A stretch of DNA of 64,000 nt from Candidatus Omnitrophota bacterium (GTDB lineage Bacteria; Ratteibacteria; UBA8468; B48-G9; JAFGKM01): NCBI GenBank assembly GCA_023819375.1, contig JAMWDI010000005.1, forward strand, positions 130,715 through 194,714, read 5' to 3'. The notes under the pieces are model-generated. The model was given only the letters and a program-made list of their open reading frames with translations. It made no database searches and was not told the DNA's origin. The translations under genes and the position numbers were made by a program. Positions 6,366 to 32,569 of this stretch are shown here, one piece after another; positions within the stretch are counted from its first letter, which is position 1, and each line of letters opens with the position of its first letter.

Positions 6366-6395
6366 TAATTTAAGTAAATTAACTAATCTCAAAAT

Positions 6396-7541: not shown

Positions 7542-7622
7542 GGAGGTGATGTAAATATGAGGGGAAAGAATTAAAATTGTAGAAAATTAAATTACATAAA
7601 AAATAAAAAAGGAGGGAATAAA

Positions 7623-8360: not shown

Positions 8361-8387
8361 TTTTTGTTGAACAATAAGGGAGGATAA

Positions 8388-12269: not shown

Positions 12270-15016
12270 AAAGTATTTTTTCAAATCAAATTTATGATAT
12301 AGTTGTTATAGGGGGCGGATGTTCAAGCATAGGTGTAATTCTACCTTTATTGAAAAATAACAAAAAAATTCTCATAATTGAAAGAAGAAGTAATTTAGGC
12401 TGGGAAATTACTTCTGCTTTTTATACTAAACTAAATAAAAATTTAAAAAGTGATAAATTTATTTTAAAAGAATTAGCAAAAATCGGTGGCATTAGAAATG
12501 GTATTACAAATCCATTCATTTTTGAGGTTTTTCTTGAAAAGTTTTTAAGCAAGAAAAAAGTTGATATTTTATATTACTCATATCCTGTAGATATTATTGA
12601 AAGAAACAATTTTATTGAAGGATTAGTTATTGGCAATAAAAATGGTTTAGAAGTTATTAGAGGTAAAATCTTTGTAGATCTAACAGATGAAGCACTTTTA
12701 TTAAAAAAAATTAATCCTAACATTGAAAAGAGAAGTAATACTCATTTTTATTCAATTTATTTTAACGGTTCAAATAAGGAATTAAAAGAAGAAATCTTAA
12801 TAGACCATCAAATTAATAACAATTTAAAACTTTTATCCCTTTTTCCAGGCTTCAAAAATAATGAAATCTGTTTAAGTTTCAAAACGAACGGTCTATCTTT
12901 GACACAAGTAAGAATAAGAATTCCTGAAATAATAAATTTGATAAGAAAAAATTATAAATTTTTAGAAGATGCTATTGTTACACACATCAGTTTTGAACCA
13001 TATTATCATGACTTATTCTCTTTAAAAAATTCCTTTATTAACTTAAAGAATGTTTTCTACTTAAATTATGAGTTATTTGAAAAAAAGAACAAATTTATAG
13101 AAGAATTTTTAGGTCCTTCAGAAAAATTAGAATTAGGTATTTTAGTTGGAGAATATATAGAAAAGCAAAAAGAACTATTTAAAAGAAAATTAGAAAAAAT
13201 TGAATGTGAAAATTATTTTTTAACTCCTGAAAAAGAATATGTTTATGATGTTGTAATTGGAGGAGGTGGAACAGCGGGTGCAATTGCTGGTATTGCATGT
13301 GGAAGAAATAAAGTAAAAACATCTATAATAGAGAATTCTACATGTCTTGGAGGTATTGGAACAGGAGGAGGTATTCATTATTATTACTATGGTATATCAA
13401 GTGGTCTCCAAAAAGAAGTAGAAACTAAAGTAAATGAACTTACAAATATTCTAAAAGGTAAATTTGATATTCTTGGTTTTCACCCAGAAGCCAAAAAAAT
13501 TATATTAGAAGATCTAAACGAAAAAGTCCAGACAGAAATATTTTATGGAAGTAGTATTATAGATGTTGAGGTTTATAATAAAAAAGTAGTTTCTGTTATA
13601 TGTGCTACTCCTGAAGGTATAGTTAGATTAAAAGGCAAAATTTTTATAGATGCAACAGGAGACGGAGATATATGCTCTAAAAGTGGAGAATTTTTCTTTT
13701 TTGGAAGAGAAAAAGATAACTTATGTCAGCCATATAGTATAGTCCCTGTCTGTTTTGACGAAAAAAATGGTAAATTAATACATATAAATTTTGATGCGGG
13801 CTATGTAGATCCTCTTGATGTCAGAGATTTAACAAGAGCAAAAAGAAATGGATTAAAACACTTCTTTCAAAATTATTATCAAGTTGAAAAAGTTCCACTT
13901 TACATTTCCCCTATTATTGGGATTAGACAAAGCAGACAAATTGTAGGTAAATACCTTTTAACTCTTAAAGATGAAATTTTTGGTTCCCAATTTCCTGATG
14001 TTATTGGTTATATGAGGGCACATTATGATAATCATCTTTTAGAGGATACCGAAAATCAAACTCTTGAAGCAATTTTTTGGAGATGGATTACAAATAATCA
14101 ACAAACTATTATGGAATGTGAAATCCCTTATAGATGTCTTCTAACACAAAATATTGAAAACGTTATTATAACTGGAAGAGCAATTTCTCTTGAACCAGAA
14201 GCACATTACGCCTTAAGAATGCAAAGAGATATTGAAAGGTTAGGTGAAGTGGCAGGTTTAGCAGCCAGTTTATGTATTAAACATAACAAAAACCCAAAAG
14301 ATATTGATATAAAAATTTTACAAGAAAATCTTAAAAATTCTGGATGCTTGATTGAAAATTTTATACCACAGAAATCTGTTGATTTTGGACTATCATTTGA
14401 AGAATTAAAAAAAGAATTTTTATCAGGAAATTTTAAAAATTCTGTTATTATTTGGTCTTTTTTTTATTGCAAAAAAGCAATAAAATTTCTCAAAGAAGTT
14501 TTAAAAACTTCAAATGATTCAAATTTGAAATTTTGGAGTGCAATTATTTTAGCAATGAATAAAGAAAAAGATGCAGTAAATATACTTTTAGAATATTTAA
14601 AAAATATGAAAAAATATGACAGAAAAATTTTCATTTCAGTTATTATCTTGTTAGGGAATGTAGGAAATAAAAAAGTCTTACCCCTTTTATATAAAATATT
14701 AATGAACAAAAAAATATTAGACCCAGATATTTTAATTGCAACTATTCAAACAATTGGTAAAATTGGGAATGAACAATGTGTTTCTATTTTAGAAAAATTC
14801 TTGAAAAGAAAAGATTTGCCTCAAAAAAGGATTTTATATAAAGGAATCCCTGGAGTAATTAATCAAGTTGAAGAAAACATTTTATGGCAAATAGAACTTA
14901 ATTGTTTAAAAGTTTTAAAAAATTTTGGTAAAAATAAAAAAGAAATTTTAAATAAATATATTAATGATGAAAGAGGATATGTTAGAAACTTTGCAAAATC
15001 ACTACTTATTCCTTAG
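12266..15016 (+). CDS. FAD-dependent oxidoreductase (two GxGxxG dinucleotide-binding segments) with C-terminal HEAT/PBS-lyase-like repeats
   Basis: IVVIGGGCSS and DVVIGGGGTAGAIAG Rossmann motifs. C-terminal repeats (LLEYLKN...LGNVGNKKVLPLLYKIL) are typical of HEAT repeats. Start overlaps the upstream stop (ATGA). Confidence 0.55.
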   Translation: MKSIFSNQIYDIVVIGGGCSSIGVILPLLKNNKKILIIERRSNLGWEITSAFYTKLNKNLKSDKFILKELAKIGGIRNGITNPFIFEVFLEKFLSKKKVDILYYSYPVDIIERNNFIEGLVIGNKNGLEVIRGKIFVDLTDEALLLKKINPNIEKRSNTHFYSIYFNGSNKELKEEILIDHQINNNLKLLSLFPGFKNNEICLSFKTNGLSLTQVRIRIPEIINLIRKNYKFLEDAIVTHISFEPYYHDLFSLKNSFINLKNVFYLNYELFEKKNKFIEEFLGPSEKLELGILVGEYIEKQKELFKRKLEKIECENYFLTPEKEYVYDVVIGGGGTAGAIAGIACGRNKVKTSIIENSTCLGGIGTGGGIHYYYYGISSGLQKEVETKVNELTNILKGKFDILGFHPEAKKIILEDLNEKVQTEIFYGSSIIDVEVYNKKVVSVICATPEGIVRLKGKIFIDATGDGDICSKSGEFFFFGREKDNLCQPYSIVPVCFDEKNGKLIHINFDAGYVDPLDVRDLTRAKRNGLKHFFQNYYQVEKVPLYISPIIGIRQSRQIVGKYLLTLKDEIFGSQFPDVIGYMRAHYDNHLLEDTENQTLEAIFWRWITNNQQTIMECEIPYRCLLTQNIENVIITGRAISLEPEAHYALRMQRDIERLGEVAGLAASLCIKHNKNPKDIDIKILQENLKNSGCLIENFIPQKSVDFGLSFEELKKEFLSGNFKNSVIIWSFFYCKKAIKFLKEVLKTSNDSNLKFWSAIILAMNKEKDAVNILLEYLKNMKKYDRKIFISVIILLGNVGNKKVLPLLYKILMNKKILDPDILIATIQTIGKIGNEQCVSILEKFLKRKDLPQKRILYKGIPGVINQVEENILWQIELNCLKVLKNFGKNKKEILNKYINDERGYVRNFAKSLLIP

Positions 15017-15573
15017 AGGACATTCTGGCCATCCTATTGTTATTTTTGTTGCTATTTATATGTATCAAATTAATCAAATAGATTTTCTCCACAATTGGCG
15101 CCAAATCTATTTCTAAATTACATTTTTTTCTTTTCAAATTAACTTTCTTCTTACCTTGATTTTTAAGTATAACAATGGATTTGTCTTATATCTTTGTCCT
15201 CCATTTGCTCTACGTTTCTTTAATATCTATCCATTTGTAGATATTAACATTTTTAATAACTTATTCCTCCATTTTTGAAAATAACTATCACCTTGGATTC
15301 CTTAAATAAAAATGAAAACTTTACTCAAAAGAGAAATTAAAGTAAAATTAAAGTGGGAAAAAATTAATTTAAAAGAAGTGTTTTGTATTCAAGAAAAATA
15401 AATGAAAAGAAAAACTTTAAGAGTGAATTTTGCCTTTCATCAATCAAATTGTGTAAAATTTATTCAGAAAAAATTATGAATTATATTATAAGAAAATTAA
15501 AAGACAAAGAGTAAAAATTTAATTTTGACAAAAACGAGAAAATTGTTAAAACTAATTGATAAATAAAAATTTT

Positions 15574-15615
15574 GGAGGGGTCGCACAGTGGTCTAGTGCG
15601 GCGGATTGCTAATCC
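15574..15615 (+). repeat. 42-nt partial copy of the tRNA-Ser 5' half (acceptor + D-arm + anticodon arm): left attachment-site direct repeat (attL-like)
   Basis: GGAGGGGTCGCACAGTGGTCTAGTGCGGCGGATTGCTAATCC matches tRNA-Ser 23875..23916. The only mismatches are compensatory D-stem changes (GCAC/GTGC vs GCAT/ATGC). Similarity ends after the anticodon loop. Confidence 0.7.
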
Positions 15616-15682
15616 CTTTTAAGCCATTTCTCTAAATTCCTGAAAAATCACTAAATCCATTCTCTATCAAGCATTTTACCCA

Positions 15683-15737
15683 CTTTTTCACTTTTTCAAT
15701 TTTTTTCATTTTTTTTCATTTTTTCACATTTTTTTGG
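15683..15737. repeat. T-rich heptamer-like microsatellite (TTTTTCA)n with variable T-run length
   Basis: ctttttca ctttttca atttttttca ttttttttca ttttttca cattttttt, seen directly in the sequence. Located just inside the left end of the element. Confidence 0.5.
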
Positions 15738-15863
15738 TACAAATACGACACAACTATATATTGTATTTTTTTGTTAGAATTTTTCATTTTAAATACTATA
15801 TATTGTATACCACTAAACCCTTGAAAATTCTTGCTTAAAGAGATATAACTTAAGAAAACCCTT

Positions 15864-16580
15864 AATAGACAATGCTTTCCAAAACAAGTATAATTAAAAC
15901 CATTGATTGACAACAATTAAGGGAGACACCCCACCCTTAAGAACTATATATTTTTTGTAGGAGATAAAAAATGCTGTCCAGAGGGTATGTTAATGAAAAA
16001 CCATTGATAATCAATATAAGAGAGAGACCCTCCCCCCCTTAAGGACTATATATTTTGACTGGGTTAAAAATATAGTCCATTAGGGGAGGGAGTATAGAAT
16101 TCCTTGATAGACAATAAATAGAGGAGCCCCCCACCCTTAAGAACTATATATTTTGGAGACACTCCAGAAAAGCATATTTTTTACAAAATAGTAAATAAAT
16201 AATGCTGTTTAAAGGAGAATAGTTTAAATCCATTAATTGATAATAAACATAAATACTTCCACCCCTAAAGGACTATATATTTTTAAAAGTTATATTTTCA
16301 AATTAAATTATTTTTGATGTATAATAAACTTAAAAAGAAGAATTACATATGGTAAAAGAAACAATTATAAAATCAAAAAAGATAAATTTTTTGAAAAATA
16401 CTATTAAAGAAGCGATTTTAGAAGCGTTAGAAGAGATAGGACTTGCAAAAGCAATTGAAGAGGGTATAAAAACAAAAAATAAGAAAAAGTTAAAAATGCT
16501 GTCCAGAAGGTAGTATGTGAAAACTATTGATAATCAATATAAAAGGGATACCCCCACCCCTAAAGGACTATATATTTTGA
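15864..16580 (+). repeat. array of five degenerate ~55-90 bp repeat units (iteron-like), each = [AATGCTKTYY ~21 nt] CATTGAT(W)RWCAAYA .. RRGA-CCCCYCCC(Y)-TAARGRACTATATATTTTK
   Basis: Core copies at about 15901-15957, 16001-16057, 16102-16155, 16231-16285 and 16524-16579. Unit 2 is followed by an inverted arm (16066-16092), giving a ~65-bp imperfect palindrome over 16028..16092. Units 1, 2, 4 and 5 carry an upstream AATGCT box at a fixed distance of ~31-33 nt. Confidence 0.7.
16349..16513 (+). CDS. small Lys/Glu-rich ORF (54 aa) between repeat units 4 and 5; possible solo antitoxin-like / DNA-binding protein
   Basis: ATG at 16349, stop TAG at 16511-16513 (manual translation MVKETIIKSKKINFLKNTIKEAILEALEEIGLAKAIEEGIKTKNKKKLKMLSRR). 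Its last codons (AATGCTGTCCAGAAGGTAG) coincide with the AATGCT box that starts repeat unit 5. A truncated copy of the same 3' end occurs in unit 2. Confidence 0.3.
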   Translation: MVKETIIKSKKINFLKNTIKEAILEALEEIGLAKAIEEGIKTKNKKKLKMLSRR

Positions 16581-16618
16581 AAATTGGGGTATAATTAATA
16601 TAAACAAAAGGAGAAAAA

Positions 16619-16828
16619 ATGAATATCAAAGTAAAAGAATTCTTGGTTGATAGAAAAGGAAGACCAAAAGGAGTAGTTTTGAATATTTCTGAATACAAAA
16701 AACTTTTAAAATTTATAGAAGATATACAAGATACACTTGACTTAAAAGAAGCAATAAAGACAAATAAAGGGTTTATTTCAGAGGAAGAGTTGTTAAAGAG
16801 ATTAAAACTAAAAGGGATTAATGTATAA
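16619..16828 (+). CDS. type II antitoxin (partner of the downstream RelE/ParE toxin)
   Basis: 69-aa ORF with GGAG RBS. Overlaps the toxin gene start by 8 bp, the typical TA organisation. Confidence 0.55.
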   Translation: MNIKVKEFLVDRKGRPKGVVLNISEYKKLLKFIEDIQDTLDLKEAIKTNKGFISEEELLKRLKLKGINV

Positions 16829-17072
16829 AGTAATTTTTGATGATAGAATAGAAAAAGATTTAAGTAAAATTCCTGCCAGAATAATAAAAAATATCTTCAA
16901 AAAAATAACTCTAATTAAAGAAAATCCATATAGTAAGGGAGTAAAAAAACTTATTGGTATAGAAGGTTATAGATTAAGGATAGGAAATTATAGAGTACTT
17001 TTCCAAATAGATGAAGAGACAAAAACAATAAAAATTTATAGGATAATCCATAGAAAAGATGCTTATAAATGA
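16821..17072 (+). CDS. type II toxin, RelE/ParE family
   Basis: 83 aa. Hallmark C-terminal motif GYRLRIGNYRVLFQIDEETKTIKIYRIIHRKD (YRhhY..d.....v.i..i.hR). Confidence 0.75.
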   Translation: MYKVIFDDRIEKDLSKIPARIIKNIFKKITLIKENPYSKGVKKLIGIEGYRLRIGNYRVLFQIDEETKTIKIYRIIHRKDAYK

Positions 17073-17443
17073 TGAAAAGAATTAGTTTACCAGATTTAAA
17101 AAAGAAGATATTTATTTATGAGACATTACAATCAGAGAAAGAAGTAAAAGAGAAAAAGATAAAAGGTCCTTTTAAATCTGGAAAAGAAGTATTAAAGTTA
17201 ATTAAATGAAATATAATCTTTATCTTACTTCCACATTCCAGAAAAAATTAAAAATATCACTTCTATCTTATCTATGAATACAGAATTTTGTTTATTTTAG
17301 TGAGAGATAAGATTTATCTAACAAACAAAGGAACTCACGAGGAAGTTTATTGAATAGAAAGTTAATACAGAGTTGTTAATTTGAATTGTAATATTGTAAA
17401 ATAAATATGAAAAGCGAAATTTTAGTCAAAAAAGAGAAGATAA

Positions 17444-18784
17444 ATGAAACAAAAAATAAAACAATTTTTTTTATGGCTTCCACTGGTTCTTATTGGAGGG
17501 TTATTAATCATAGGACTTGTTTATGTATTAAAAGAAAACTTTTTGGGGACATCAATTTCAATAGGTTTCGTTGTTTTTAGTTATGCAATAGCAATAGTTA
17601 TGCCCGAGATAATAGAAGAACTTTCTCGGCCAACAAAAATTACTCTTGGTATAATAATTAGCCTATCTCTTACAGGAATAGGAGTTTTGTATTTACAAGA
17701 AAAATTTTTAGTTTTAATAGGATGCACTCTCGGGTTGTTAATGATAAGAAAAGTGTTGTTAGTGATAGGGAAAAACATACAAGCAATAAACGCAAAAATA
17801 AAGGAGGCAAACCCCAAAATTAAACAATGGTTGAAGAATATCTTTTTGCTAATAGGTATTATGACAAGGGAAAATATTTTTAAAAGAAATTTTACACACT
17901 CTAAAGAAACAGAAATGAAATGGGATGTTAAAGAATTATTTAAAATTGTGAATAAATCGGAGTTAAAATATAAAATACATGGAATAGTAGCAGTAGTTTA
18001 TATTTTGTTTTTAACTCTTTTCTTTAATATTCTCGATAACAAAATTCTCCATAATAGTTCATTCTGGTGGATTAGCATTTTATTTTTGGGAATATTTGTT
18101 TTAATAGGATTTATCCATACATTACTTGACACAATATCATGGCATGGAGTAAAAAATGGATTATTAAAATTTTTTGTTTATTACCCTCTTGTATTAGGAA
18201 TATGTCTGTTTCTACACGGAAGAGTAACAGAAATAACTATTGATGGAGAAATAATAGAACCAGAAGAAAATGACAAAATACCAGTGTCTGATGTAGGAAA
18301 GTTAATATTGCTTATGTATGGTTTGTTTATCTTTTATAGAGCAATTACCTTTTTTGTTTGGTGGGGAGAGCGCAAACAAGTTATAAATTGTTTAAAAAAA
18401 ACAATAATAGAACTATATCAATTTTTGACTAAATCATATAACTCAAAAAAAGAAATAATAAAAAATATAGAAGAGTTTCATCAAAAATTACAACATTGCC
18501 CTTTACCAACAATAGATACCTTGGTTAAGAAAGAAATAGCCAAATTTTATCTCCGTATTTTTGAATTCAGTGAAAGATTAAAAGAAATTATGGAGACATC
18601 TGACAAAAGGTTTATAAAAAATAAAAATGGAGTATTAACGATAGTTTATGGTGATGAAGAATATTCACTGGGATACCTATGTGAACCATATGTTAAAGAA
18701 ATAAAAGAAAATATAAAAAAATTAATGAAGACATATAGAATATCTAAATACGACATTGACATTCCTATGGTAAATTTTGAATAA
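17444..18784 (+). CDS. polytopic membrane protein (~8 predicted TM helices) with ~150-aa C-terminal soluble domain; unknown function (cargo of element)
   Basis: 446-aa ORF. Multiple long hydrophobic segments in the N-terminal 300 aa, charged C-terminal domain. No recognisable family. Confidence 0.45.
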   Translation: MKQKIKQFFLWLPLVLIGGLLIIGLVYVLKENFLGTSISIGFVVFSYAIAIVMPEIIEELSRPTKITLGIIISLSLTGIGVLYLQEKFLVLIGCTLGLLMIRKVLLVIGKNIQAINAKIKEANPKIKQWLKNIFLLIGIMTRENIFKRNFTHSKETEMKWDVKELFKIVNKSELKYKIHGIVAVVYILFLTLFFNILDNKILHNSSFWWISILFLGIFVLIGFIHTLLDTISWHGVKNGLLKFFVYYPLVLGICLFLHGRVTEITIDGEIIEPEENDKIPVSDVGKLILLMYGLFIFYRAITFFVWWGERKQVINCLKKTIIELYQFLTKSYNSKKEIIKNIEEFHQKLQHCPLPTIDTLVKKEIAKFYLRIFEFSERLKEIMETSDKRFIKNKNGVLTIVYGDEEYSLGYLCEPYVKEIKENIKKLMKTYRISKYDIDIPMVNFE

Positions 18785-19114
18785 AAACATGTTCCTTAAA
18801 ATAATAATATGGTTAAAAAATAATTGGTTTAAGGTTATAGTAATATTTCTTTTATTAAAAGCAGTAGGGGAAAATCCTTATTCATATTATCAATTTTTAA
18901 GATGGGTTGTTTCTCTTTCCAGTGGTTATTTGACTTATTCTTTTTTTCCTCAAAAAGATATGTCTGGGTTTGGATATTTGGTTTGATAACCATTTTATTC
19001 AATCCTGTGGAACCTTTTCATTTTTCAAAAGAAACCTGGCATATTTTAGATGTCATTGTAGTAATGGTTTACTTCTTTGTTCTTATTAAGAGGGAAACAA
19101 AACAACGAAAATGA
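18777..19114 (+). CDS. two overlapping small hydrophobic ORFs (69 and 70 aa; 18777..18986 and 18902..19114), possibly one frameshifted small membrane protein
   Basis: Both are TM-rich small ORFs in adjacent frames directly after the membrane protein gene. Coding status is uncertain. Confidence 0.25.
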
Positions 19115-19721
19115 ATAAGAAAAGAAAATAAATTAAATTTATCTTTAAGTTAGTTTGTGAACTAACTACTACTTTCTGTGGATATTTATAATTAAAACAT
19201 AATTACAACCACAGATGCTTAACTCTACTCCTACTTTGAAATAAAAAAGCAAAATACTATTCAAAATAACCTTCCCTTTATAGGCAAAATAATTTCCCCT
19301 GAAATTTTTCTGTGGGGTCATAACCAGTAGGCAAGGGTGGAAAGTATGGGGATTGGGGGGGTACTCCCCTATTCATATGTAGTAATTTTAATAAAAATGA
19401 ATTTTACTCCTCTATAGGGATATCAATGATTTTAGCGATTTTAACAAGGAAAAAAAGTCAAAAAAAGTAATACATTATATGAAGGGAAAAATAAAAGTGA
19501 AAGTTATTCATTTAGAGTTAATACATTACATAAAGAAAAGATAAAGATGGAAAAAAGATAGTAATTCCAATGAAGCAGAAGTTTTTTGAAAGAATATCAA
19601 TAATTTTGGTAGTTTTGAGGATAAGTTTAAAAGAAGATGATGACCTAAAAAGTAATATATTAATAAAAAAGTAAAAAAGAATGAAGTTTTAAACAAGGGG
19701 AAAAATAGAGAGGGAAAAAAT

Positions 19722-20018
19722 ATGGAAAAAACCTTTAGAACATCAGATTTCTATCTTACTGCTTACCTTCTTTGTAATGGGTTGGATTTCTCTTACGAAA
19801 GAGATGCTGTAAAAAATAAGGTTGTTTTTATTTTTAAGGATAAAGAAAAAGCAGAAAAATTGGTTGAAGATTATTATCGAGACAGGGCAAAAATCTCCCC
19901 AAAAAGGTATGTTGAAGTAATTTACTCTCTAAAAAGTTTTCTTTTTGCCCAAAAGGAGGATGGAAATGGAAATAAAAATAGAAATGAAAAAAATTTTGGG
20001 AGATACACTGCCTCCTAA
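19722..20018 (+). CDS. small phage/satellite-type hypothetical protein (resembles DUF5659-like small proteins)
   Basis: 98-aa ORF with a GGGAAAAAATATG RBS-like context. Sits directly after a 600-bp non-coding control region. The family call is from memory and weak. Confidence 0.35.
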   Translation: MEKTFRTSDFYLTAYLLCNGLDFSYERDAVKNKVVFIFKDKEKAEKLVEDYYRDRAKISPKRYVEVIYSLKSFLFAQKEDGNGNKNRNEKNFGRYTAS

Positions 20019-20562
20019 TGAAATTCTCAAAGTTTTCCCTCAAGGTAGAGAGTATATAACGAATAAATTAACTTATCTCCTTAATAAGCGTCAGCAATTA
20101 TTAAACAGATTTAAACATTTTCTCAAAAGACAAGATTTAAACTTAGTTGAACTTATTCTTATTAGAGATACATTTAAAGAACGTGTAAAAAAGATAAATA
20201 AAGAAATAAGAAGATTAAAAAGGTATTTAACTTCAGAAATTCAAGATACCCACCTTGAAATAGATATTAGAACCATTAAAGAGAGAATTAATATTATAGA
20301 TATCTTTGAAGAGTTGTATCCAGATGCCAAACTTTATAAAACCAGTCGGACCGTCTATACTAACTGTCCTTTTCACGACGACAGACATCCATCCTTTCAC
20401 ATTTACCCTAAAACTTGCACCTTTTATTGTTATGGATGCGGTGTTAAAGGAGATGTGGTTGATTTAGTTAAGTTATCAAAAGGTTTGACTTTTAAAGAAG
20501 CAGTGTTTTTTTTGAAAAATCTTATAAAAGGAGGAAGATATGAAGAGGAAATTTTTAAATGA
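19945..20562 (+). CDS. CHC2-type zinc-finger protein (DnaG/P4-alpha primase-like zinc-binding domain), coiled-coil N-terminus
   Basis: C-terminal motif CPFHDDRHPSFHIYPKTCTFYCYGCGVKGDVVDLV = CxxH(x17)CxxC zinc ribbon of bacterial/phage primases. The true start is probably downstream of 19945 (MEMEIKI.. or MKKILG..). Confidence 0.55.
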   Translation: MPKRRMEMEIKIEMKKILGDTLPPNEILKVFPQGREYITNKLTYLLNKRQQLLNRFKHFLKRQDLNLVELILIRDTFKERVKKINKEIRRLKRYLTSEIQDTHLEIDIRTIKERINIIDIFEELYPDAKLYKTSRTVYTNCPFHDDRHPSFHIYPKTCTFYCYGCGVKGDVVDLVKLSKGLTFKEAVFFLKNLIKGGRYEEEIFK

Positions 20563-22042
20563 AATAGATGAAATTTTATTGAAAGAGAAAAAAGATAGTT
20601 TATCAAAAGAAGAGTTAAAATTATTAGGGTATGAAGACGATGTATATATCCGGGGGGTAGTCAAGGAAAAGTTAGAGAAAAACAAGATAGAACTTACTTC
20701 TCCAACTTTTCCTCAACTCCGGGATGAAATTATAAAATATTACCCTCTTGATGTTAAACTTTTAAAGACACTCCTTGCTGTGTATGTGGCTAATATGTAT
20801 GAAGATGAAACTGAACTACCTGTATGGCTTTTAATCATTGCTCCACCATCTTATGGGAAGACAAAGGCAGTTATACTACTACAAGATTTACCCAATACTT
20901 ATTTTATTTCCGAATTAACACCTCATACCTTCTTATCAGGGGATAAAAATACAGAAAACTCTTTGTTATTTAGGTTACCAAAAAAGGCAGTTTTGATATT
21001 CAAGGACTTTACCACTCTTATGGAACTTCCACCTGAAAAAAGAAGCGTGATATTGGCTCAAATGCGAGAAATCTACGATGGTCAGTACATAAAAGAGTTT
21101 GGCAGTAGCACCACGAAAAAATGGAGTGGTAAAATCGGCATCATTGCTTGTGCTACTACTAACTGGTTTTCCTTCCACCATTCAAAGACGATAATAGGGG
21201 AACGATTTTTATTTTACAGAATTTATTACTCTGACGATGAGTTTAATTCTATTAACCAACAAATTTTGAGTAGAAGAATTGATAAAAATGTAGATGTCCA
21301 CCTAAAAGGGGTGATTAAAGAGTTTATATCAAATCTTAAAGATTATTCTTATGAACTTAATGAACAAGAGAAAAACTATATTATCAAAACAGCAAACTTC
21401 ATTGCCAAGGCAAGATGTGCAGTAGTAAGAGATGGCTACAAAAAAGAAATAATTAACATACCAGAACCTGAAGCACCTTTTAGGATAGTACAACAATTAA
21501 GATTGTTTTATTCAAAACTGCAAACTATTGATAATAACATAGAAGATAATTTAGATGTTATAAAGAAAGTGATTTTAAGTAGTATATCAGAAGAGAGAAG
21601 AAAAGTAATTGAATTCTTACTTACAAGAGAAGAAGCGGATTTTCAAGAGATAAGGCAGGTAGTTAACATCTCTGACAGCACTTTAAGAAGGACGTTGGAG
21701 GACCTAGATGTATTGGGAGTTGTTAACAAAGAGAGTAGGGGCAAGGATTACTGGCACCTTAAAGGGGAATACAAAGAAATTTTTGTCCAAGGAAAAATTG
21801 AAAACCCCACTCCCATAAAGGATTTTGCCTGTTTTTCCTTCACTCACCACCCCCCATACCAGATGGTAGAAAAAATATACGAGGAATACTCTAAAAAGGG
21901 AGAAAAAGCAAAATTTTTACAGCGTTTTCAGAATTATTTAGGAGTTAATGCTTTAGAAGAGTTGGATAAAATACCCATTGAAGATTTAAAACACTTTATC
22001 AATGAAATGACGAATTTTTGGATAAAGGTTGATTTAAAATAA
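20540..22042 (+). CDS. replication-associated P-loop NTPase (SF3 helicase / DUF3987-like) with C-terminal winged-helix DNA-binding domain
   Basis: Walker A LLIIAPPSYGKTKA, Walker B-like AVLIFKDFT, sensor-like GIIACATTN. C-terminal wHTH-like segment (RKVIEFLLTREEADFQEIRQVVNISDSTLRRTLEDLDVLGVV). Overlaps the zinc-finger gene upstream. Confidence 0.5.
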   Translation: MKRKFLNEIDEILLKEKKDSLSKEELKLLGYEDDVYIRGVVKEKLEKNKIELTSPTFPQLRDEIIKYYPLDVKLLKTLLAVYVANMYEDETELPVWLLIIAPPSYGKTKAVILLQDLPNTYFISELTPHTFLSGDKNTENSLLFRLPKKAVLIFKDFTTLMELPPEKRSVILAQMREIYDGQYIKEFGSSTTKKWSGKIGIIACATTNWFSFHHSKTIIGERFLFYRIYYSDDEFNSINQQILSRRIDKNVDVHLKGVIKEFISNLKDYSYELNEQEKNYIIKTANFIAKARCAVVRDGYKKEIINIPEPEAPFRIVQQLRLFYSKLQTIDNNIEDNLDVIKKVILSSISEERRKVIEFLLTREEADFQEIRQVVNISDSTLRRTLEDLDVLGVVNKESRGKDYWHLKGEYKEIFVQGKIENPTPIKDFACFSFTHHPPYQMVEKIYEEYSKKGEKAKFLQRFQNYLGVNALEELDKIPIEDLKHFINEMTNFWIKVDLK

Positions 22043-22053
22043 GGAGGTATAAG

Positions 22054-22473
22054 ATGAAAGTTTTAACTCCTATAGAAGCGATTAAAAAAAGATGTAAAGA
22101 ATGTCTGGGATATGAACAAGACCCAAAAGAATGTAATGGGAAAGAGACAGAGGGACTTATAGGAACACAGGAAGACATTATAGGCAGGAATTATGAATGT
22201 CCTCTATATCTCTATAGGACAGGAAATAGACCATTAAAGGAAGAGAAGTCAAGATTGAAAGAGTTAAATATTAAGATATTGTCTCCTATTAAAGCCATTA
22301 AGGAATATTGTTTAAGATGCTGTAATGGAGATAGGAAGTATTTAAAGAATTGTCCAAGCCAAGATTGTCCTTTATGGGAATATAGGTTAGGTAAAAATCC
22401 TCATTTAAAAGGAAAAAGAAAAAAACCCATAGGGTTAAGACCTATTAAAATAGGGGTAAAAAATGGTAGTTGA
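22054..22473 (+). CDS. tandem zinc-ribbon protein (two ~45-aa repeats: [LS]PI.AIK..C..C...(n)C.(n)C(P)L(Y/W).YR.G.NP)
   Basis: Internal duplication visible in the translation (LTPIEAIKKRCKECLG..YECPLYLYRTGNRP / LSPIKAIKEYCLRCCNG..QDCPLWEYRLGKNP). AGGAGG RBS. Basic C-terminal tail. Confidence 0.5.
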   Translation: MKVLTPIEAIKKRCKECLGYEQDPKECNGKETEGLIGTQEDIIGRNYECPLYLYRTGNRPLKEEKSRLKELNIKILSPIKAIKEYCLRCCNGDRKYLKNCPSQDCPLWEYRLGKNPHLKGKRKKPIGLRPIKIGVKNGS

Positions 22474-22563
22474 TGTGGGATTTTTTAAAAAATTAGACAC
22501 GATTTTTATCTGGTTAATAGTTTTATACTACCTAATAAAAAACAAAGGGATTTTTTTAAAAAA

Positions 22564-22788
22564 ATGAGTAATGAAATTAGAAAAAGATTACTAACAATTA
22601 AGGAAGCCAGTGAATATCTCGGAATATCAGTTAGAGGACTTTACTTAATGGTTTATAGAAGACAGATACCATTTGTTAAACTTGGAGGGAAAATAAGATT
22701 TGATGTTAAAAAACTTGATGAATGGATAGAGAAAAACACTATACCATCAGCAGAAGATTTGATTGAAAAAAAGATTATGTTAAAATAG
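22564..22788 (+). CDS. xis: excisionase / AlpA-Xis family HTH DNA-binding protein
   Basis: 74 aa. LTIKEASEYLGISVRGLYLMVYRRQIPFVKLGGKIRF is the MerR-like excisionase HTH pattern. Immediately upstream of the integrase. Confidence 0.7.
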   Translation: MSNEIRKRLLTIKEASEYLGISVRGLYLMVYRRQIPFVKLGGKIRFDVKKLDEWIEKNTIPSAEDLIEKKIMLK

Positions 22789-22794
22789 AATAAA

Positions 22795-23889
22795 ATGGGA
22801 AGAGTATTTCAAATAGGGAAAACTTGGTATATTGATGTATCCTATAAGGGGAAGAGAATAAGAGAAGCAGTTGGTAAAGATAAAAAACTTGCCATTACTA
22901 TACTAAAGAAAAAAGAGATTGAACTTATTGAGAACAGACATCTGGATATAAAAAGAAATGCAAAGGTTAAATTTTCTGATTTTTCAACGTACTTTCTTAA
23001 TACATACTCAAAAGTAAATAAAAAAAGTTGGAAGAGAGACCAATTAAGCATAAACCATTTAAATAAGTTTTTTGGTAGTAAATTTCTATATGAGATAACA
23101 AGTAAAGACATAGAAGAATATAAGAAAAAACGATTAGAAACAGGAATAAAAACATCTACCCTTAATAGGGAACTTGCTTGTTTAAAAACAATACTAAATA
23201 AAGCAGTAGAATGGGAATATTTAAAAGAGACACCACCAAAGATAAAACTATTTAAGGAAAATAACCAGAGAGTAAGATATTTAACAGAAAATGAAGCAAA
23301 AACTTTAATAGATTTATCCCCAGAACCATTAAAGGGTATAATAATAATTGCATTAAATACAGGTATGAGACAAGGAGAAATATTAAATCTTAAATGGAAA
23401 GATATTGATTTTAAGGAGAAAATAATTACCATATGGGATACAAAGAGCAAAGAAAAAAGATATATACCTATAAATGAGATTGTTTATAACACATTACTAA
23501 ATATTGATAGAAATCCAGAAAGTGAATATGTATTTTATGGAGAAGACCCTAAAAAACCTATTTCAGGAAGTTATATAACACATTCATTTAACAGGATAGT
23601 AAAAAAAGCAGGGATAAAAGATTTTAGATTTCACGATTTAAGACATACATTTGCAAGTTGGCTTGTAATGAAAGGAGTAAACTTGAAAACTATACAGGAA
23701 TTACTTGGACATAAAGACCAAAGAATGACGTTAAGATATTCACATTTATCCCCTGAAGTAAAAAAAGAAGCAGTGGAAATTCTATCAGAGAATTTTAATT
23801 TTGGCAAAAATACGGCAAAAGTCAATTTTAACAAAAATAAAAAAATTGTTAAAACCATTGATAGACAAAGGATTGGAGGGGTAGCATAG
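22795..23889 (+). CDS. int: tyrosine-type site-specific integrase
   Basis: N-terminal SAM-like/arm-binding region. Catalytic box HDLRHTFASWLVMKGVNLKTIQELLGHKDQRMTLRYSHL carries the R..H..R..Y tetrad. The 3' end overlaps the 5' end of tRNA-Ser by 15 nt. Confidence 0.85.
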   Translation: MGRVFQIGKTWYIDVSYKGKRIREAVGKDKKLAITILKKKEIELIENRHLDIKRNAKVKFSDFSTYFLNTYSKVNKKSWKRDQLSINHLNKFFGSKFLYEITSKDIEEYKKKRLETGIKTSTLNRELACLKTILNKAVEWEYLKETPPKIKLFKENNQRVRYLTENEAKTLIDLSPEPLKGIIIIALNTGMRQGEILNLKWKDIDFKEKIITIWDTKSKEKRYIPINEIVYNTLLNIDRNPESEYVFYGEDPKKPISGSYITHSFNRIVKKAGIKDFRFHDLRHTFASWLVMKGVNLKTIQELLGHKDQRMTLRYSHLSPEVKKEAVEILSENFNFGKNTAKVNFNKNKKIVKTIDRQRIGGVA

Positions 23890-23965
23890 TGGTCTAATGC
23901 GGCGGATTGCTAATCCGTTGGTCGGTCGAAAGGCCGGCCCGTGGGTTCGAATCCCACCCCCTCCG
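23875..23965 (+). tRNA. tRNA-Ser (anticodon GCU), class II with long variable arm
   Basis: Manual fold. Acceptor GGAGGGG/CCCCTCC; D-stem GCAT/ATGC; anticodon stem GCGGA/TCCGT with loop TTGCTAA; long variable arm; T-arm GTGGG-TTCGAAT-CCCAC; discriminator G. Confidence 0.85.
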
Positions 23966-23986
23966 CCGGAGCCCCGTCCTCCGAAG

Positions 23987-24583
23987 TTAAGAGAAATAAG
24001 GGAGATGCCATTTAAATTTTATAGCCAATAATCTTGTTAAAAAAACTATCAAAACACATACCAGTCCAGATATAGAAGATGAAAATCCAAAGATGATGAA
24101 AAGATAGAAAAAGAAACCTCCTAAAATAGAACAACTTGCATAAAATTCTTTACATAAAACAAGTGGAACATCTCCAGAAAGCAAATCCCTCATAATCCCT
24201 CCACCTATTGCAGTTGAAAGTCCAAGAAGTATAATACCTATTAAACTAAGACCATTCTCATAAGCAATAATACAACCAGTAGAAGTAAATGCAGATAATC
24301 CAATAGCATCTGATATTAAAAAAATTTTCTCTATAATTGGGGTTGTTTTTTTTCTTAATAAAATACCTATTAAGATGCCAAGAAGAGAAAATCCAATGTA
24401 GGAAGGTTCTGTAAGCATTTTTGGCAATTTATTTACAAGAATATCCCTGACAATCCCTCCACCAAGAGCAGTAATACAACCCAAAACTAAAATTCCAAAT
24501 AAATCAAATTCTTTTTGAATTCCTTTAATTGCACCTGAAAAGGAAAAAGTAATAAGACCGATAATATTTAAAAATGAAAACAT
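23987..24583 (-). CDS. UPF0126 / TRIC-type trimeric intracellular cation channel family membrane protein (YadS-like)
   Basis: Two repeats of the GxxxGGGxxRD motif (ALGGGIVRDIL, AIGGGIMRDLL) in a 6-TM protein. Confidence 0.65.
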   Translation of the reverse strand: MFSFLNIIGLITFSFSGAIKGIQKEFDLFGILVLGCITALGGGIVRDILVNKLPKMLTEPSYIGFSLLGILIGILLRKKTTPIIEKIFLISDAIGLSAFTSTGCIIAYENGLSLIGIILLGLSTAIGGGIMRDLLSGDVPLVLCKEFYASCSILGGFFFYLFIIFGFSSSISGLVCVLIVFLTRLLAIKFKWHLPYFS

Positions 24584-24584
24584 T

Positions 24585-25181
24585 TCAGAATGACAATTTA
24601 TTTTTTAGTCGGACAGATGTTTCTATTCTCATAGGAACCATTTTTTTCATGGCAGGATGTGTTGCCTTTCCTATAAGAATTATCCTTACAAGAGTTGTTT
24701 CAGTATTTAATTTTTCATCTATAATATTTCTTCCATTTGCATCATAATATTCAAATCTTGAACCACTTAAAAGATACACTTTTTTATTCAGATCTAAATC
24801 AACATCATTTTGATATAAACTTGTCTCCCCTCTATCTGTATCTTTTATTTTTATTTGATATATTACAGTATTTTTTGCTGTTGAATCAGAAAATACAAGT
24901 GTGTATTTGTCCAAAGAGACAGGTGGGTTTACTTGTGAACATATATTTCCAGCATCTTTTAAACCTAAAACTCCTTTCCTTCCATTTGTTATTATATCTA
25001 TCATCTGACTTAAAACTTCTCCAACTTCATTATAAGCATTTATTATATTTCTTGTCCTTGCTGCTCTTACGTAAAGAAGTGTAATTAAAGTGAAAACAAC
25101 AACAAGGATAGTTAAAGCCACAAGAATTTCAAGAATAGTAAATCCCTTTTTATCCATTTTTGCCCTCTCAATAAAGTCCAT
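24585..25181 (-). CDS. minor (pseudo)pilin with prepilin-type N-terminal domain
   Basis: KKGFTILEILVALTILVVVFTLITLL class III signal + hydrophobic helix. The likely true start is the internal MDKKGF. Confidence 0.6.
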   Translation of the reverse strand: MDFIERAKMDKKGFTILEILVALTILVVVFTLITLLYVRAARTRNIINAYNEVGEVLSQMIDIITNGRKGVLGLKDAGNICSQVNPPVSLDKYTLVFSDSTAKNTVIYQIKIKDTDRGETSLYQNDVDLDLNKKVYLLSGSRFEYYDANGRNIIDEKLNTETTLVRIILIGKATHPAMKKMVPMRIETSVRLKNKLSF

Positions 25182-25653
25182 CCCTTGTTCTATAAATTTT
25201 ATGCTTTAATAATACTTTATTCCCTTTTCTTCTTAAAATATAGATTGTAATTTCTAAAGACATTGCATTATCATACATATTTTCATTAAAATTCTGTATA
25301 AGGTTTCCAGAACCATCTTTTCCTTGAACAAACCTTATAATTCTAAAATCATTTCTATAACTTTCTGGTGTAAAATCGGTATAAGGACAGGGATTATCAT
25401 TTATATATATAATAGATTCTGATTCTACTTCATCTCCAAAATCTCTCTGTCTATCATAATAAATTGGTGGAAAGTCAATATTTTTAACTTCTTCAATTGT
25501 ATATTGTAATAAAGCAGTTGCAATAGTTAATTCATTTGCTTTTTTTATAACATTTAAATTACCTGAAATTATAAGAAGACCTGTTGCAATGACAGCAGCA
25601 ATTAAAAAGATAGAAATCACAACTTCAATTAAAGTTAATCCTTTCTTTACCAT
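25168..25653 (-). CDS. minor (pseudo)pilin with prepilin-type N-terminal domain
   Basis: MVKKGLTLIEVVISIFLIAAV N-terminus. 161 aa. Confidence 0.6.
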   Translation of the reverse strand: MVKKGLTLIEVVISIFLIAAVIATGLLIISGNLNVIKKANELTIATALLQYTIEEVKNIDFPPIYYDRQRDFGDEVESESIIYINDNPCPYTDFTPESYRNDFRIIRFVQGKDGSGNLIQNFNENMYDNAMSLEITIYILRRKGNKVLLKHKIYRTRDGLY

Positions 25654-27335: not shown

Positions 27336-27370
27336 ATTTGCTCCACTTTATTTTACCTTTATCTTTTTTA

Positions 27371-27411
27371 AAATGTCAAATTTTCTCAAATTTTTATTAA
27401 TTTGACATTTA
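27371..27411. promoter_or_regulatory. perfect 12-bp inverted repeat AAATGTCAAATT-(15 nt)-AATTTGACATTT in divergent promoter region (candidate operator)
   Basis: Seen directly in the sequence. Lies between the pilin-operon start (27335, minus) and the epimerase gene (plus). The arms contain TTGACA-like hexamers. Confidence 0.5.
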
Positions 27412-28409
27412 AAATTTATGATATAATTATTTGGAAAATGGGAAAGATTTTAGTAACAGGGGCTTGTGGTTTCATTGGTTGGAAAGTTTGTGAAAAATTG
27501 CTTGAAAGAGGAGAAGAAGTTTTAGGTGTTGATGATTTAAATGATTATTATGATGTAAGATTAAAAAATTGGCGTCTTGAAAAGTTAAGAAAAAATAAAA
27601 ATTTCCTTTTTGTAAAATTTGACATCTCTAAAAAGGAAATAAGATATATAGTAAAGGAAGCAAAACCAGATATAATAATAAATCTTGCTGCTCGTGCTGG
27701 TGTAAGGGCAAGTATAGAAAATCCAGACATATATTATCAGACAAATGTTATAGGAAATTTAAATCTTCTTGAATGTGCAAAAGAATTTGGAATTAAAAAA
27801 TTTATTTATTCTTCAAGTTCTTCTTTATATGCTGGTTGTAAAATTCCATTTTCAGAGGACTTACCTGTAAATGAACCAATTTCTCCTTATGCAGCAAGTA
27901 AAAAAGCAGGAGAAATTACCTGTTTTACATACCATTACCTCTATGGCATAGATATTGTAATATTCAGATATTTTACTGTTTATGGACCTGCTGGAAGGCC
28001 TGATATGAGTATTTTTAAATTTATAAAGTTAATAGATGAGGAAAAAGAAATAACGGTTTATGGTGATGGAACTCAAAGTAGGGATTTTACTTATATAGAT
28101 GATATTGCAGAAGGAACAATTTCTGGTTTGAATCTATCAGGTTTTCATATAATAAATCTTGGAAGCAGTTTTCCACATTCATTAAACGAAGTAATAAAAA
28201 TAATTGAGGAAAAATTAAATAAAAAAGCAAAGATTGTTTATGCTCCATTCCCTAAAACAGATTTAAAAATAACATATGCTGATATTACAAAAGCCAAAAA
28301 ATTATTGAACTGGGAACCAAAAACAAAAATTGAAGAAGGGATTGAGAAAACAATACTCTGGTATATTGAAAATAAACACTGGCTTAAATATATTATGTTA
28401 AAGGACTGA
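27402..28409 (+). CDS. NAD-dependent epimerase/dehydratase (UDP-glucuronate 4-epimerase-like, SDR family)
   Basis: ILVTGACGFIGWKV Rossmann motif, YAASKKAGE catalytic YxxxK. The true start is probably 27438 (MGKILVTG), because the 27402 ATG lies inside the inverted-repeat operator. Confidence 0.7.
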   Translation: MTFKIYDIIIWKMGKILVTGACGFIGWKVCEKLLERGEEVLGVDDLNDYYDVRLKNWRLEKLRKNKNFLFVKFDISKKEIRYIVKEAKPDIIINLAARAGVRASIENPDIYYQTNVIGNLNLLECAKEFGIKKFIYSSSSSLYAGCKIPFSEDLPVNEPISPYAASKKAGEITCFTYHYLYGIDIVIFRYFTVYGPAGRPDMSIFKFIKLIDEEKEITVYGDGTQSRDFTYIDDIAEGTISGLNLSGFHIINLGSSFPHSLNEVIKIIEEKLNKKAKIVYAPFPKTDLKITYADITKAKKLLNWEPKTKIEEGIEKTILWYIENKHWLKYIMLKD

Positions 28410-30719: not shown

Positions 30720-30763
30720 TTTTAAGTAAAATTGTACCTCTAAAATGTTAAAAAATCAAGTTT

Positions 30764-31654: not shown

Positions 31655-31675
31655 AATATTTTTTAAATTATTTAT

Positions 31676-32488: not shown

Positions 32489-32569
32489 CCCTTTTTTATT
32501 GATCTATAAAGAGAATAAACAAAGAGAAAAATAATAATACTCCAGGATAATATAAGCATAAACCAACCA

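Follow-up and report, generated by a model that had tools for sequence, protein, structure and literature searches.

Gene Content of the Locus

In the window (the whole 64,000-nucleotide, i.e., 64 kb, stretch of DNA analyzed here, from the genome of an uncultured Candidatus Omnitrophota bacterium), an intact tRNA-Ser(GCU) gene overlaps the end of a tyrosine integrase gene, and a second copy of the tRNA 5' half is found upstream. The principal features of this region are listed below; L083 is a contig from a sister sample (Logan SRR21619498).

15514..15615, + strand: attL, the displaced native 5' half of tRNA-Ser(GCU) (15574..15615) with the native upstream region, identical to L083:7813-7914
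15597..15615, + strand: identity (crossover) segment in attL, tRNA positions 24-42, TGCGGCGGATTGCTAATCC, anticodon stem-loop; position 23 holds the last difference between attP and attB
15690..15753, + strand: putative left (P') arm, with TTTTTTTCAT repeats in 10-nt phasing (15690..15732) and the candidate arm-type site GGTACAAATACGACACAA (15736..15753)
15850..16590, + strand: five direct units of ~90 nt each, found only in the element, which could be promoter/terminator modules or iterons
16619..17072, + strand: RelB-like antitoxin (16619..16828) and ParE toxin (16821..17072) (Pfam PF18506 and PF05016)
17444..18784, + strand: predicted membrane protein, 446 aa, without a family match
19722..20018, + strand: DUF5659 protein (Pfam, 9e-12), also present in the relative L174
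19945..20562, + strand: protein with a CHC2 (DnaG-type) zinc ribbon (Pfam PF01807, 8.6e-20; PHROGs DNA primase families; NCBIfam dnaG domain)
20540..22042, + strand: 500-aa protein with a Walker-A-like motif, PPSYGKT (identified by eye), and a C-terminal winged helix (weak HTH_34 match)
22054..22473, + strand: cysteine-rich protein, 139 aa, double zinc-ribbon-like (sub-threshold zf-C4pol match only)
22564..22788, + strand: predicted excisionase-type HTH protein (xis, recombination directionality factor; Pfam HTH_17, 5.8e-16, and Tn916-Xis, 1.9e-5; PHROGs excisionase)
22795..23889, + strand: tyrosine integrase (int), 364 aa (Pfam Phage_integrase, 1.5e-41)
23803..23855, + strand: putative right (P) arm within the int tail, with the candidate arm-type site GGCAAAAATACGGCAAAA (23803..23820) and promoter-like hexamers
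23875..23967, + strand: attR, the chimeric, intact tRNA-Ser(GCU) (ARAGORN; Rfam tRNA model, 63.5 bits)

The 500-aa protein is presumed to be a replication or initiator protein; a PDB sequence search with this protein gave nothing significant, and an Rfam search with the five ~90-nt repeats identified no family.

The int and xis genes are located at the tRNA-proximal end of the element, with xis ending 7 nt upstream of int. The int stop codon is a TAG in the tRNA D-loop (tRNA positions 13-15), so that, as noticed at the outset, the gene ends 15 nt inside the tRNA. The C-terminal tail of the integrase, from about 23780, is non-conserved, and its codons run through the tRNA upstream region as copied in the element; in an alignment of relatives, the tails diverge past the catalytic domain. 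The relatives of the integrase retrieved by a sequence search of the PDB include XerA, HP1 Int and lambda Int. The alignment with lambda Int, which is relevant for the arm-binding domain, starts at query residue 25, and there is no Pfam arm-domain match. The candidate arm-type pattern, which was derived after the fact, has only two matches in the 64 kb.

Two Copies of the tRNA 5' Half

A search of the 64 kb with the 42-nt 5'-half pattern detects only the segments 23875..23916 (0 mismatches) and 15574..15615 (3 mismatches), with 0 matches in 100 shuffles. The similarity of the two copies stops after ...CTAATCC, i.e., at tRNA position 42. The three differences are at position 9 (C/A) and at a compensatory pair in the D-stem, positions 13 (C/T) and 23 (G/A). 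Together with the end of the similarity at 42, these attP/attB differences place the crossover within positions 24-42 (counterpart in attR, 23898..23916). Neither ARAGORN nor Rfam calls a second full tRNA at the left copy, and no 3'-half copy of tRNA-Ser is present in the 64-kb window.

Both tRNA-Ser alleles, the chimeric one and the native one of L083, are good tRNAs: the latter scores 59.4 bits with the Rfam tRNA model, against a gathering score of 29. The 42-nt copy, the end of its similarity after the anticodon loop, the crossover in that region and the foldability of each version, all proposed in the preliminary description, hold, and its refuting case, a second full-length tRNA at the left copy, is excluded. 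Its statement that the copies differ only by D-stem substitutions is correct for the 13/23 pair and overlooks position 9. Nor is the tRNA 5' end the start of the repeat, as had been assumed: another ~60 nt of similarity precede it (15514..15573 vs. 23817..23874, with ~80% identity and two small indels), and on the int side this stretch lies within codons for the C-terminal tail of the integrase.

The Unoccupied Site

The contig L083, which was located by exact-protein look-up, contains this site without the element. It is 99.7-99.9% identical to the window and has the same flanks, the genes for a FAD-oxidoreductase and a Gly_transporter, between which there is a single intact tRNA-Ser(GCU) that combines the 5' half of the left copy with the same 3' half as in the window. 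L083 1-7914 aligns with window positions 7703-15615 and L083 7813-17314 with 23817-33316, leaving unmatched the 8,301 bp integrated element (15616..23916, + strand). Because the intact tRNA-Ser of L083 carries the left-copy 5' half, 15574..15615 is the displaced native half and the half fused to int belongs to the element. The latter contributes at least positions 1-23 of the attR tRNA, and the host contributes positions 43-93. The FAD-oxidoreductase flank, when used as a query on genome contigs, recovered no relative.

These observations indicate, with a probability that we put at roughly 0.9, that the locus carries an 8.3-kb site-specific integrative element inserted in tRNA-Ser(GCU) and bringing a replacement 5' half. 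In agreement with the preliminary description, an element that supplies the 5' half is thus supported by the empty-site comparison proposed there. The native 5' half is of the 15574..15615 type, and the interval is not conserved core sequence, being absent from L083, so that the other refuting case named in that description is excluded as well. The organization is also that of the 5'-fragment islands collected in Islander: an intact tRNA at one end, a same-strand cognate fragment (positions 1-42) 8,301 nt upstream, and a tyrosine integrase inside an interval that is within the 2-200 kb range of that database.

The left copy could, alternatively, stem from a decayed tandem array, as what remains of an earlier family member that was largely lost by deletion, namely its right end with the int tail and the 5' half. 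Such arrays are common at tRNA genes (PMC4383910), and the left copy reads in frame as KFNFDKNEKIVKTN followed by a stop, resembling the int tail KVNFNKNKKIVKT. Nevertheless, tblastn left of 15514 found no further integrase remnant in 15017..15513, and in L083 the left-copy 5' half and the sequence upstream of it belong to a single intact tRNA-Ser, continuous with the host flank, which makes this scenario very improbable. Even less credible is a classical island, with an attP that restores the 3' half, or an integrase that belongs to a neighboring element, the 5' copy being an unrelated duplication. The classical layout is that of the majority of the islands in Islander (3,760 of 3,919 have a 3' tDNA fragment and 159 a 5' fragment; PMC4383910) and of more distant integrase relatives. 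However, the occupied and empty alleles share the tRNA 3' half and the flank that follows it, all of the inserted DNA lies upstream of position 43, and the window lacks a 3'-half copy.

Under the interpretation of a replacement 5' half, the excised circle would contain attP. Exact-pattern searches for the attP and attL junctions in metagenome and viral contig collections gave no match and hence no sign of such a circle. We infer the present-day mobility of the element only from its being present in one genome and absent from the other, and from int and xis being intact.

The Integrase Family

In a set of 80 loci with related integrases, the tRNA at the int 3' end is co-oriented in 28, starting -199 to +127 nt relative to the int stop, and 36-37 show the convergent (usual) layout. 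Displaced 5'-half copies (tRNA positions 1-38 to 1-43) are present 4.3-10 kb upstream in L007, L017 and L033, and 3'-half copies starting at tRNA positions 30-35 were detected in seven convergent loci. L009, L015 and L034 have 3'-half copies downstream of the tRNA; no second integrase was found near these copies, which we regard as left behind by other islands. Three elements, with integrases of 67-76% identity, share one and the same 42-nt 5' half, and their host 3' halves differ, as would be expected if the 5' half travels with the element. In four co-oriented relatives, the int ORF reads beyond the crossover point, so that the C-terminus would change upon integration. The IMG/VR relatives, at 30-42% identity, are distant; nearly all have the classical orientation, and no attP-form genome of the clade is among them. 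Across the family, the att site is fixed just downstream of int, whereas the orientation of the tRNA relative to int appears to have flipped repeatedly, which fits symmetric recognition of the anticodon stem-loop.

Further Omnitrophota assemblies (L085-L089, L170-L174) have the same architecture at tRNA-Ser, and 28 genomes have it at different tRNAs. This recurrence bears on the possibility of an assembly or binning chimera, with the element misjoined to the tRNA locus via a shared tRNA-like repeat. Breaks inside the element do occur: window positions 20347-20376 are where Logan contigs end and start, and, for the relative P0005, the JGI contig breaks off 2.1 kb upstream of int. Both element junctions, however, are crossed at 100% identity by Logan contigs (L084, 7745-20376; L001, 20347-33889), so that, given also the recurrence, a chimera has a next to negligible probability.

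Type of Element

The preliminary description considered the element either satellite/PICI-like or integrative-plasmid-like. A phage satellite that needs a helper phage for packaging would be compatible with the 8.3 kb size, the int-xis pair at one end, the primase-type zinc-ribbon replication genes and the lack of virion genes among the element ORFs (Pfam, PHROGs). Against it, the tested ORFs contain no homologue of a terminase small subunit or of capsid-size redirection, portal, head or packaging proteins, nor of a helper-responsive repressor (Pfam, PHROGs and, for the genes of helper exploitation and the repressor, NCBIfam; several of the tested ORFs have no annotation). Furthermore, the cargo varies widely among relatives that use an integrase of this clade, with Prim-Pol/DUF5906 in L007, a carbamoyltransferase in L017 and an inovirus-type rolling-circle Rep in L033. 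We therefore consider a satellite unlikely; of the two proposals, the plasmid-like one stands, and "small integrative plasmid-like element" fits better than "satellite/PICI-like". No conjugation genes (FtsK/Tra, relaxase, T4SS domain) were detected among the element ORFs with Pfam, which places the element outside the AICE/ICE definition.

A Putative Promoter within the Integrase Tail

Given that the element inserts upstream of the tRNA 3' part, it must provide for transcription of the tRNA. The native upstream region in attL contains the promoter-like sequence TTGACA (15525..15530), a 16-nt spacer and TAAAAC (15547..15552). It aligns with TTAACA (23828..23833), a 16-nt spacer and TAAAAC (23850..23855) in the int tail, and with TTGACA-16-TAAAAT of the relative L085. 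The native TTGACA is closer to the consensus than the hexamers of the element; clear hexamers, TTGAC(T/A)-18-TAATAT/TAAAAT, are present 7 nt upstream of the tRNA in L033 and L066. A generic scan of the element for sigma-70 promoters and terminators revealed no excess (43 sites vs. 44.6 expected, in a genome of ~27% GC). Across the family, promoter scores upstream of co-oriented tRNAs are only modestly higher than in int gene-body controls (7.4 vs. 6.2; Mann-Whitney p = 2e-5), a difference confounded by base composition. The similarity over ~60 nt upstream, including the promoter-like hexamers, suggests that the element probably also carries its own promoter for the tRNA, encoded inside the integrase tail, with the reservation that these are weak consensus matches in a ~27% GC genome.

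Relationship to Known Systems

The 5'-half arrangement is rare yet already documented, and the element represents no new kind of system or mechanism. It fits the anticodon-centered class "A" of Islander sites. As far as the 5'-fragment islands are described (Williams, 2002, as cited in PMC8371274), there, too, the integrase island lies upstream of the regenerated tRNA, with the displaced 5' fragment at the far end in the same orientation and the gene parted from its original promoter. Compared with the Islander islands, for which counts are given (PMC4383910), the present case comes from an Omnitrophota MAG, has an int ORF that ends in the tRNA D-loop and ~60 nt of native promoter-like upstream sequence copied in the int tail, and belongs to an integrase clade that is oriented this way as a whole.

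In archaea, the 5' half of a tRNA is used for integration by pTN3 (PMC8371274, PMC5495485). In these pTN3/TKV4-type elements of Thermococcales, with "suicidal" integrases of the SSV type, attP/attB is the tRNA-Leu 5' half (positions 2-44), the int ORF overlaps tRNA sequence, and the full tRNA is rebuilt away from its original promoter, expression being proposed to come from the integrase side, all similar to the element described here (PMC5495485, PMC8371274). However, the pTN3 att is inside the int ORF and the gene is split on integration; here, int stays intact and full length (364 aa) when integrated, its stop (13-15) preceding the crossover (24-42), and the integrase is bacterial, with a separate Xis.

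The classical elements that use the anticodon loop (for example phage HP1 and SSV1; the "symmetric sublocation" class of Williams) likewise have the crossover in the anticodon stem-loop and an attP core a few tens of nucleotides downstream of the int stop. The classical layout with 3'-half repeats is found in distant members of the present integrase family, and HP1 Int is, as mentioned above, among the PDB relatives of the integrase in the window. The difference is that, here, the tRNA segment from int to the crossover is the sense 5' half, not the reverse complement of the 3' half.

Myxophage Mx8 targets the 3' end of tRNA-Asp. Its attP lies within the 3' end of intP, and an integrase coding sequence that extends into or across the att region is thus a shared feature (PMC4383910), but the int ORF of the window element is the same in both states.

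The locus is a clean bacterial case, verified by an empty site, of a rare mode of tRNA integration ("reverse"), in which an essential gene has its 5' half, and probably also its transcription, taken over by a mobile element; the phylum, Omnitrophota, has been little studied. Annotators and island-finding tools should expect 5' fragments, and integrase ORFs entering tRNA genes, in these lineages.

Proposed Mechanism

We propose that the element, which is predicted to encode a tyrosine integrase, an excisionase, a plasmid-type replication module and a RelB/ParE toxin-antitoxin pair, recombined through its attP with the anticodon stem-loop of the host tRNA-Ser(GCU) gene. The strands would be exchanged within the 7-nt anticodon loop, the arms of the stem being the core sites. 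As the allele comparison shows, integration displaces the native 5' half and the putative native promoter 8.3 kb upstream, where they are dead, and the host 3' half becomes fused with the 5' half brought in by the element, giving again a tRNA predicted to fold. The chimeric tRNA would be transcribed from the element, either from the promoter-like copy in the int tail or by read-through from int. Excision, directed by Xis, would restore the native gene.

The int-tRNA overlap may, in addition, act as a sensor of the integration state, a speculation to which we assign a low likelihood. Only in the integrated state would the int transcript contain a complete tRNA, and cleavage by RNase P at tRNA +1 would remove the last five codons and the stop of int, the resulting non-stop mRNA damping Int synthesis. 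The excised circle, with the 5' half only, would present no RNase P substrate and would yield a stable int mRNA, and the host supply of tRNA-Ser(GCU) would depend on transcription from the element. The int stop overlaps the tRNA in only 12 of 30 co-oriented relatives.

The unoccupied integration site and origin of the tRNA halves

The features at issue are:

15514..15615: left copy of the tRNA 5' half (15574..15615) with its upstream sequence
15616..23916: integrated element
22564..22788: excisionase-type gene (xis, HTH_17)
22795..23889, + strand: 364-aa tyrosine recombinase (int; Pfam Phage_integrase, 1.5e-41)
23875..23967, + strand: tRNA-Ser(GCU) (ARAGORN)

The tRNA-Ser(GCU) gene scores 63.5 bits with the Rfam tRNA model (gathering score 29). 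Its first 42 nt are present again at 15574..15615, as the preliminary description had it; the copies show 3 mismatches, and no further match to this 5' half was found elsewhere in the 64-kb window, nor any in 100 shuffles. The likeness stops past ...CTAATCC, i.e., the last shared base is tRNA position 42, immediately 3' of the anticodon loop, again as described. The left copy is called as a tRNA by neither ARAGORN nor Rfam and is therefore a fragment, which excludes a second full-length tRNA gene. The copies had been thought to differ solely by D-stem substitutions; the compensatory pair at positions 13 (C/T) and 23 (G/A) is real, but position 9 (C/A) also differs. Furthermore, the repeat reaches ~60 nt 5' of the tRNA (15514..15573 vs 23817..23874, ~80% identity), where the right-hand stretch is part of the coding sequence for the C-terminal tail of the integrase.

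When the 916-aa FAD-dependent oxidoreductase encoded in the upstream flank was looked up as an exact protein match, 2 Logan contigs, both of sister runs, were retrieved. One of them, L084 (SRR21619497), carries the left junction in its occupied state and is 100% identical to the window; the right junction, likewise occupied, is covered by L001/L082 with 100% identity. L083 (SRR21619498) contains the unoccupied site, namely, the oxidoreductase gene, one intact tRNA-Ser(GCU) (L083:7873..7965, 59.4 bits with Rfam) and a Gly_transporter gene, which is the 3' neighbor of the tRNA in the window too. L083 positions 1-7914 match window 7703-15615 at 99.87% identity and positions 7813-17314 match 23817-33316 at 99.67%, so that the two genomes differ at this site by exactly 8,301 bp, and the possibility that the interval is conserved core sequence is excluded by its absence from L083.

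The tRNA of the empty site joins the 5' half (C9, C13, G23) and upstream sequence of the left copy to the same 3' half as in the window. This allele identifies, at the sequence level, 15514..15615 as native DNA that has been displaced, comprising the promoter region and the 5' half, and the 5' half fused to int as element DNA; it places the strand exchange between positions 23 and 43, inside TGCGGCGGATTGCTAATCC, which holds the anticodon stem-loop. The proposal that the element supplies a replacement 5' portion through crossover in the anticodon-loop region is thus upheld, and the question of which half is ancestral is settled in favor of the left copy. The cleavage sites are predicted at the borders of the anticodon loop. 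The attP junction of the excised circle would read ...CTAATGCGGCGGATTGCTAATCC|CTTTTAAGCC...; exact-pattern searches of metagenome and viral contigs found no excised form.

Close relatives of the integrase (P0002, P0003 and P0005, 67-76% identical) occupy tRNA-Ser(GCU) sites of further Omnitrophota assemblies, and their C-termini all read ...GG(V/L)A*, with the same D-loop TAG. L174, L085 and the window share an identical 42-nt 5' half, with host-to-host differences in the variable arm and elsewhere in the 3' part. To judge from these sequences, this is the expected look of an element-borne 5' half on host-specific 3' halves.

The host genes upstream (window 8388-15016) encode a 1,293-aa GH123-like/CBM9 glycoside hydrolase and the 916-aa FAD-oxidoreductase, which has HEAT repeats, and those downstream of the site encode type IV pilin-like N-terminal methylation motifs; overall GC is ~27%. 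Independent assemblies break within the element, not at its ends: the overlap of L084 and L001 is 30 nt (window 20347-20376), and the 108.9-kb JGI contig with P0005 stops 2.1 kb upstream of int; such breaks are also noted at the starts of L085 and L086. These breaks may reflect strain-level element variants.

Overlap of the integrase gene with the tRNA and transcription of the chimera

The int ORF ends with a TAG 15 nt into the tRNA, and the HTH_17 gene lies directly 5' of int, in agreement with the arrangement initially reported; the Xis function of its product in the element is a prediction. Among the co-oriented cases (tRNA on the same strand as int), 12 of 30 show such an overlap, and it is therefore common, not obligatory. 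T13 of the element D-stem variant makes the int stop codon (GCA TAG; window 23884-23889); with the native half (GCA CAG; 15583-15612), the frame would continue to a TAA in the anticodon loop, yielding ...GGVAQWSSAADC*. The TAG is kept in 4/4 tRNA-Ser elements examined.

In the native upstream region, TTGACA (15525..15530) is followed, after a 16-nt spacer, by TAAAAC (15547..15552), 21 nt 5' of the mature end. The aligned sequence of the element is TTAACA (23828..23833)-16-TAAAAC (23850..23855), and L085 has TTGACA-16-TAAAAT at the equivalent place. The tRNA-Phe gene of the window is preceded by TTGACA-17-TATTTT, 11 nt 5' of its 5' end. In two GC-richer relatives, TTGACT-18-TAATAT (L033) and TTGACA-18-TAAAAT (L066) are separated from the tRNA by 7 nt and fall just past or within the int end. 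Given these consensus-level matches, we think it likely that the element carries its own tRNA promoter, coded in the non-conserved integrase tail. Alternatively, the chimeric tRNA could be transcribed by read-through from int. A generic promoter scan found no site excess in this AT-rich DNA, and the family-wide promoter score is only modestly above that of coding controls. Whether from an element-borne promoter, as we favor, or by read-through, the chimeric tRNA is presumably expressed.

Orientation of the tRNA across the integrase family

In an alignment of 27 integrase homologues, conservation extends to the region past the catalytic Tyr and the tails then diverge, several of them translating tRNA sequence (e.g., PIAQLVEH... 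and RDGGKEDATDLKS...). A family scan with one genome per GTDB species yielded 80 loci (33-51% identity) from Omnitrophota, Planctomycetota, Aminicenantes, Nitrospirota, Acidobacteriota, Desulfobacterota and others. Displaced 5' halves were sought in the co-oriented loci having enough upstream sequence.

Table. tRNA genes at the 80 integrase loci and displaced 5' halves
Same strand as int: 28/80 loci; tRNA start -199 to +127 nt from the int stop
Opposite strand (classical): 36-37/80 loci; few to ~100 nt past the int stop
Without called tRNA: rest of the 80 loci; mostly tRNA or tmRNA fragments uncalled by ARAGORN
L007, displaced 5' half: tRNA-Arg positions 1-43, 10.0 kb upstream
L017, displaced 5' half: tRNA-Gln positions 1-38, 4.3 kb upstream
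L033, displaced 5' half: tRNA-Leu positions 1-40, 6.6 kb upstream

One extra same-strand case (L004) was recognized by eye at a contig end, and L061, with the tRNA 351 nt from the int stop, is doubtful as classical. Displaced 3' halves are present in 7 convergent loci, starting at positions 30-35. In both layouts, the crossover maps a few tens of nt past int, to the anticodon loop, and the layouts differ solely in which tRNA half fills the space between int and the crossover. In a crude neighbor-joining tree, which gives an approximate orientation phylogeny, the window's clade is all co-oriented and the layouts interleave elsewhere, suggesting repeated orientation flips within the family; such flips plausibly fit a quasi-palindromic core site. 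Among more distant IMG/VR relatives, 17 are convergent vs 1 co-oriented.

Four loci with no ARAGORN tRNA (L022, L024, L027 and L068) are followed, in the first 150 nt past the int stop, by + strand sequence that resembles the 3' portion of a tRNA with a long variable arm; that of L068 has a UCA anticodon stem-loop resembling tRNA-Sec. A - strand tmRNA gene adjoins L021, and in L022 a tmRNA gene lies on the + strand, ~300 nt past the int stop. In three co-oriented relatives, perfect or near-perfect 3'-half copies of the same tRNA lie 1.7-4.9 kb downstream (L009:4132-4174, L015:3121-3157, L034:15942-15988). No related integrase is found between the tRNA and the copy in these loci; the intervening DNA of L034 encodes nitroreductase and carbonic anhydrase, and that of L009 carries toxin-antitoxin genes as cargo. 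These segments resemble remnants of classical islands, lacking an integrase and situated on the opposite side of that tRNA.

Relation to known systems

The supply of the 5' half by the element is unusual and already documented. In the Islander table, the tDNA fragment is of the 3' type for 3,760 islands vs the 5' type for 159, and the configuration filter of that database explicitly admits 5' fragments located upstream of a tRNA gene (PMC4383910). Bacterial recombinant tRNA genes have been reviewed as retaining the original promoter with very few exceptions; in the same review, archaeal integrases of the pTN3 type are said to use the 5' half, the expression coming from the side of the integrase, which is "seldomly encountered in bacteria" (PMC8371274). 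Details of pTN3 are given in PMC5495485. Unlike in pTN3, int is unsplit here, and the sole resemblance to Mx8 and SSV is contact between the int ORF and the att region. The present case adds a verified empty site, a promoter-like copy within the int tail, and evidence for systematic use of this orientation by a large integrase clade of uncultured bacteria.

Gene content and ends of the element

Table. Annotated genes of the element
RelB/ParE toxin-antitoxin pair
446-aa membrane protein
DUF5659 protein
CHC2 (DnaG-type) zinc-ribbon protein
500-aa protein with Walker-A-like motif and winged helix
139-aa cysteine-rich protein
Xis and Int

Genes for virions, packaging or conjugation were not detected, and the CHC2 and Walker-A/winged-helix proteins agree with the earlier report of replication-type genes without virion genes. 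The block of DUF5659, zinc ribbon, ~440-500 aa protein, small protein, xis and int is also present in L174 and L171, and other cargo found with the same integrase clade includes Prim-Pol/DUF5906 (L007), carbamoyltransferase (L017) and inovirus-type rolling-circle Rep (L033). The element had been likened to a satellite/PICI or an integrative plasmid. Of these, the plasmid-like assignment fits better, and we regard it as a small integrative element of plasmid-like character. A helper-dependent satellite is less likely and finds no positive support.

The left end of the element has T-tract repeats phased at 10 nt and a candidate arm-type site that is mirrored by one within the tail of int. Five direct ~90-nt units (window 15850-16590; consensus ...AATGCTGTCCAGAGG...AAAACCATTGATAGACAA...CCCCCCCCTTAAGGACTATATATTTTG), with no Rfam match, are restricted to this end, and their AAAACCATTGAT part repeats the int-tail sequence just 5' of the tRNA (23851-23868); the left end of L174 has 4 analogous repeats (positions 440-800). 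Tandem half-site motifs GGTACAAATACGACACAA and GGCAAAAATACGGCAAAA, candidate Int arm-type sites, occur at 15736-15753 and 23803-23820, ~100-120 nt either side of the crossover, and the pattern, derived after the fact, matches just these two places in 64 kb. Conservation of the right-hand copy extends to the related loci L170-L174 and L026, although the codons in which it lies also show weak conservation of the encoded protein.
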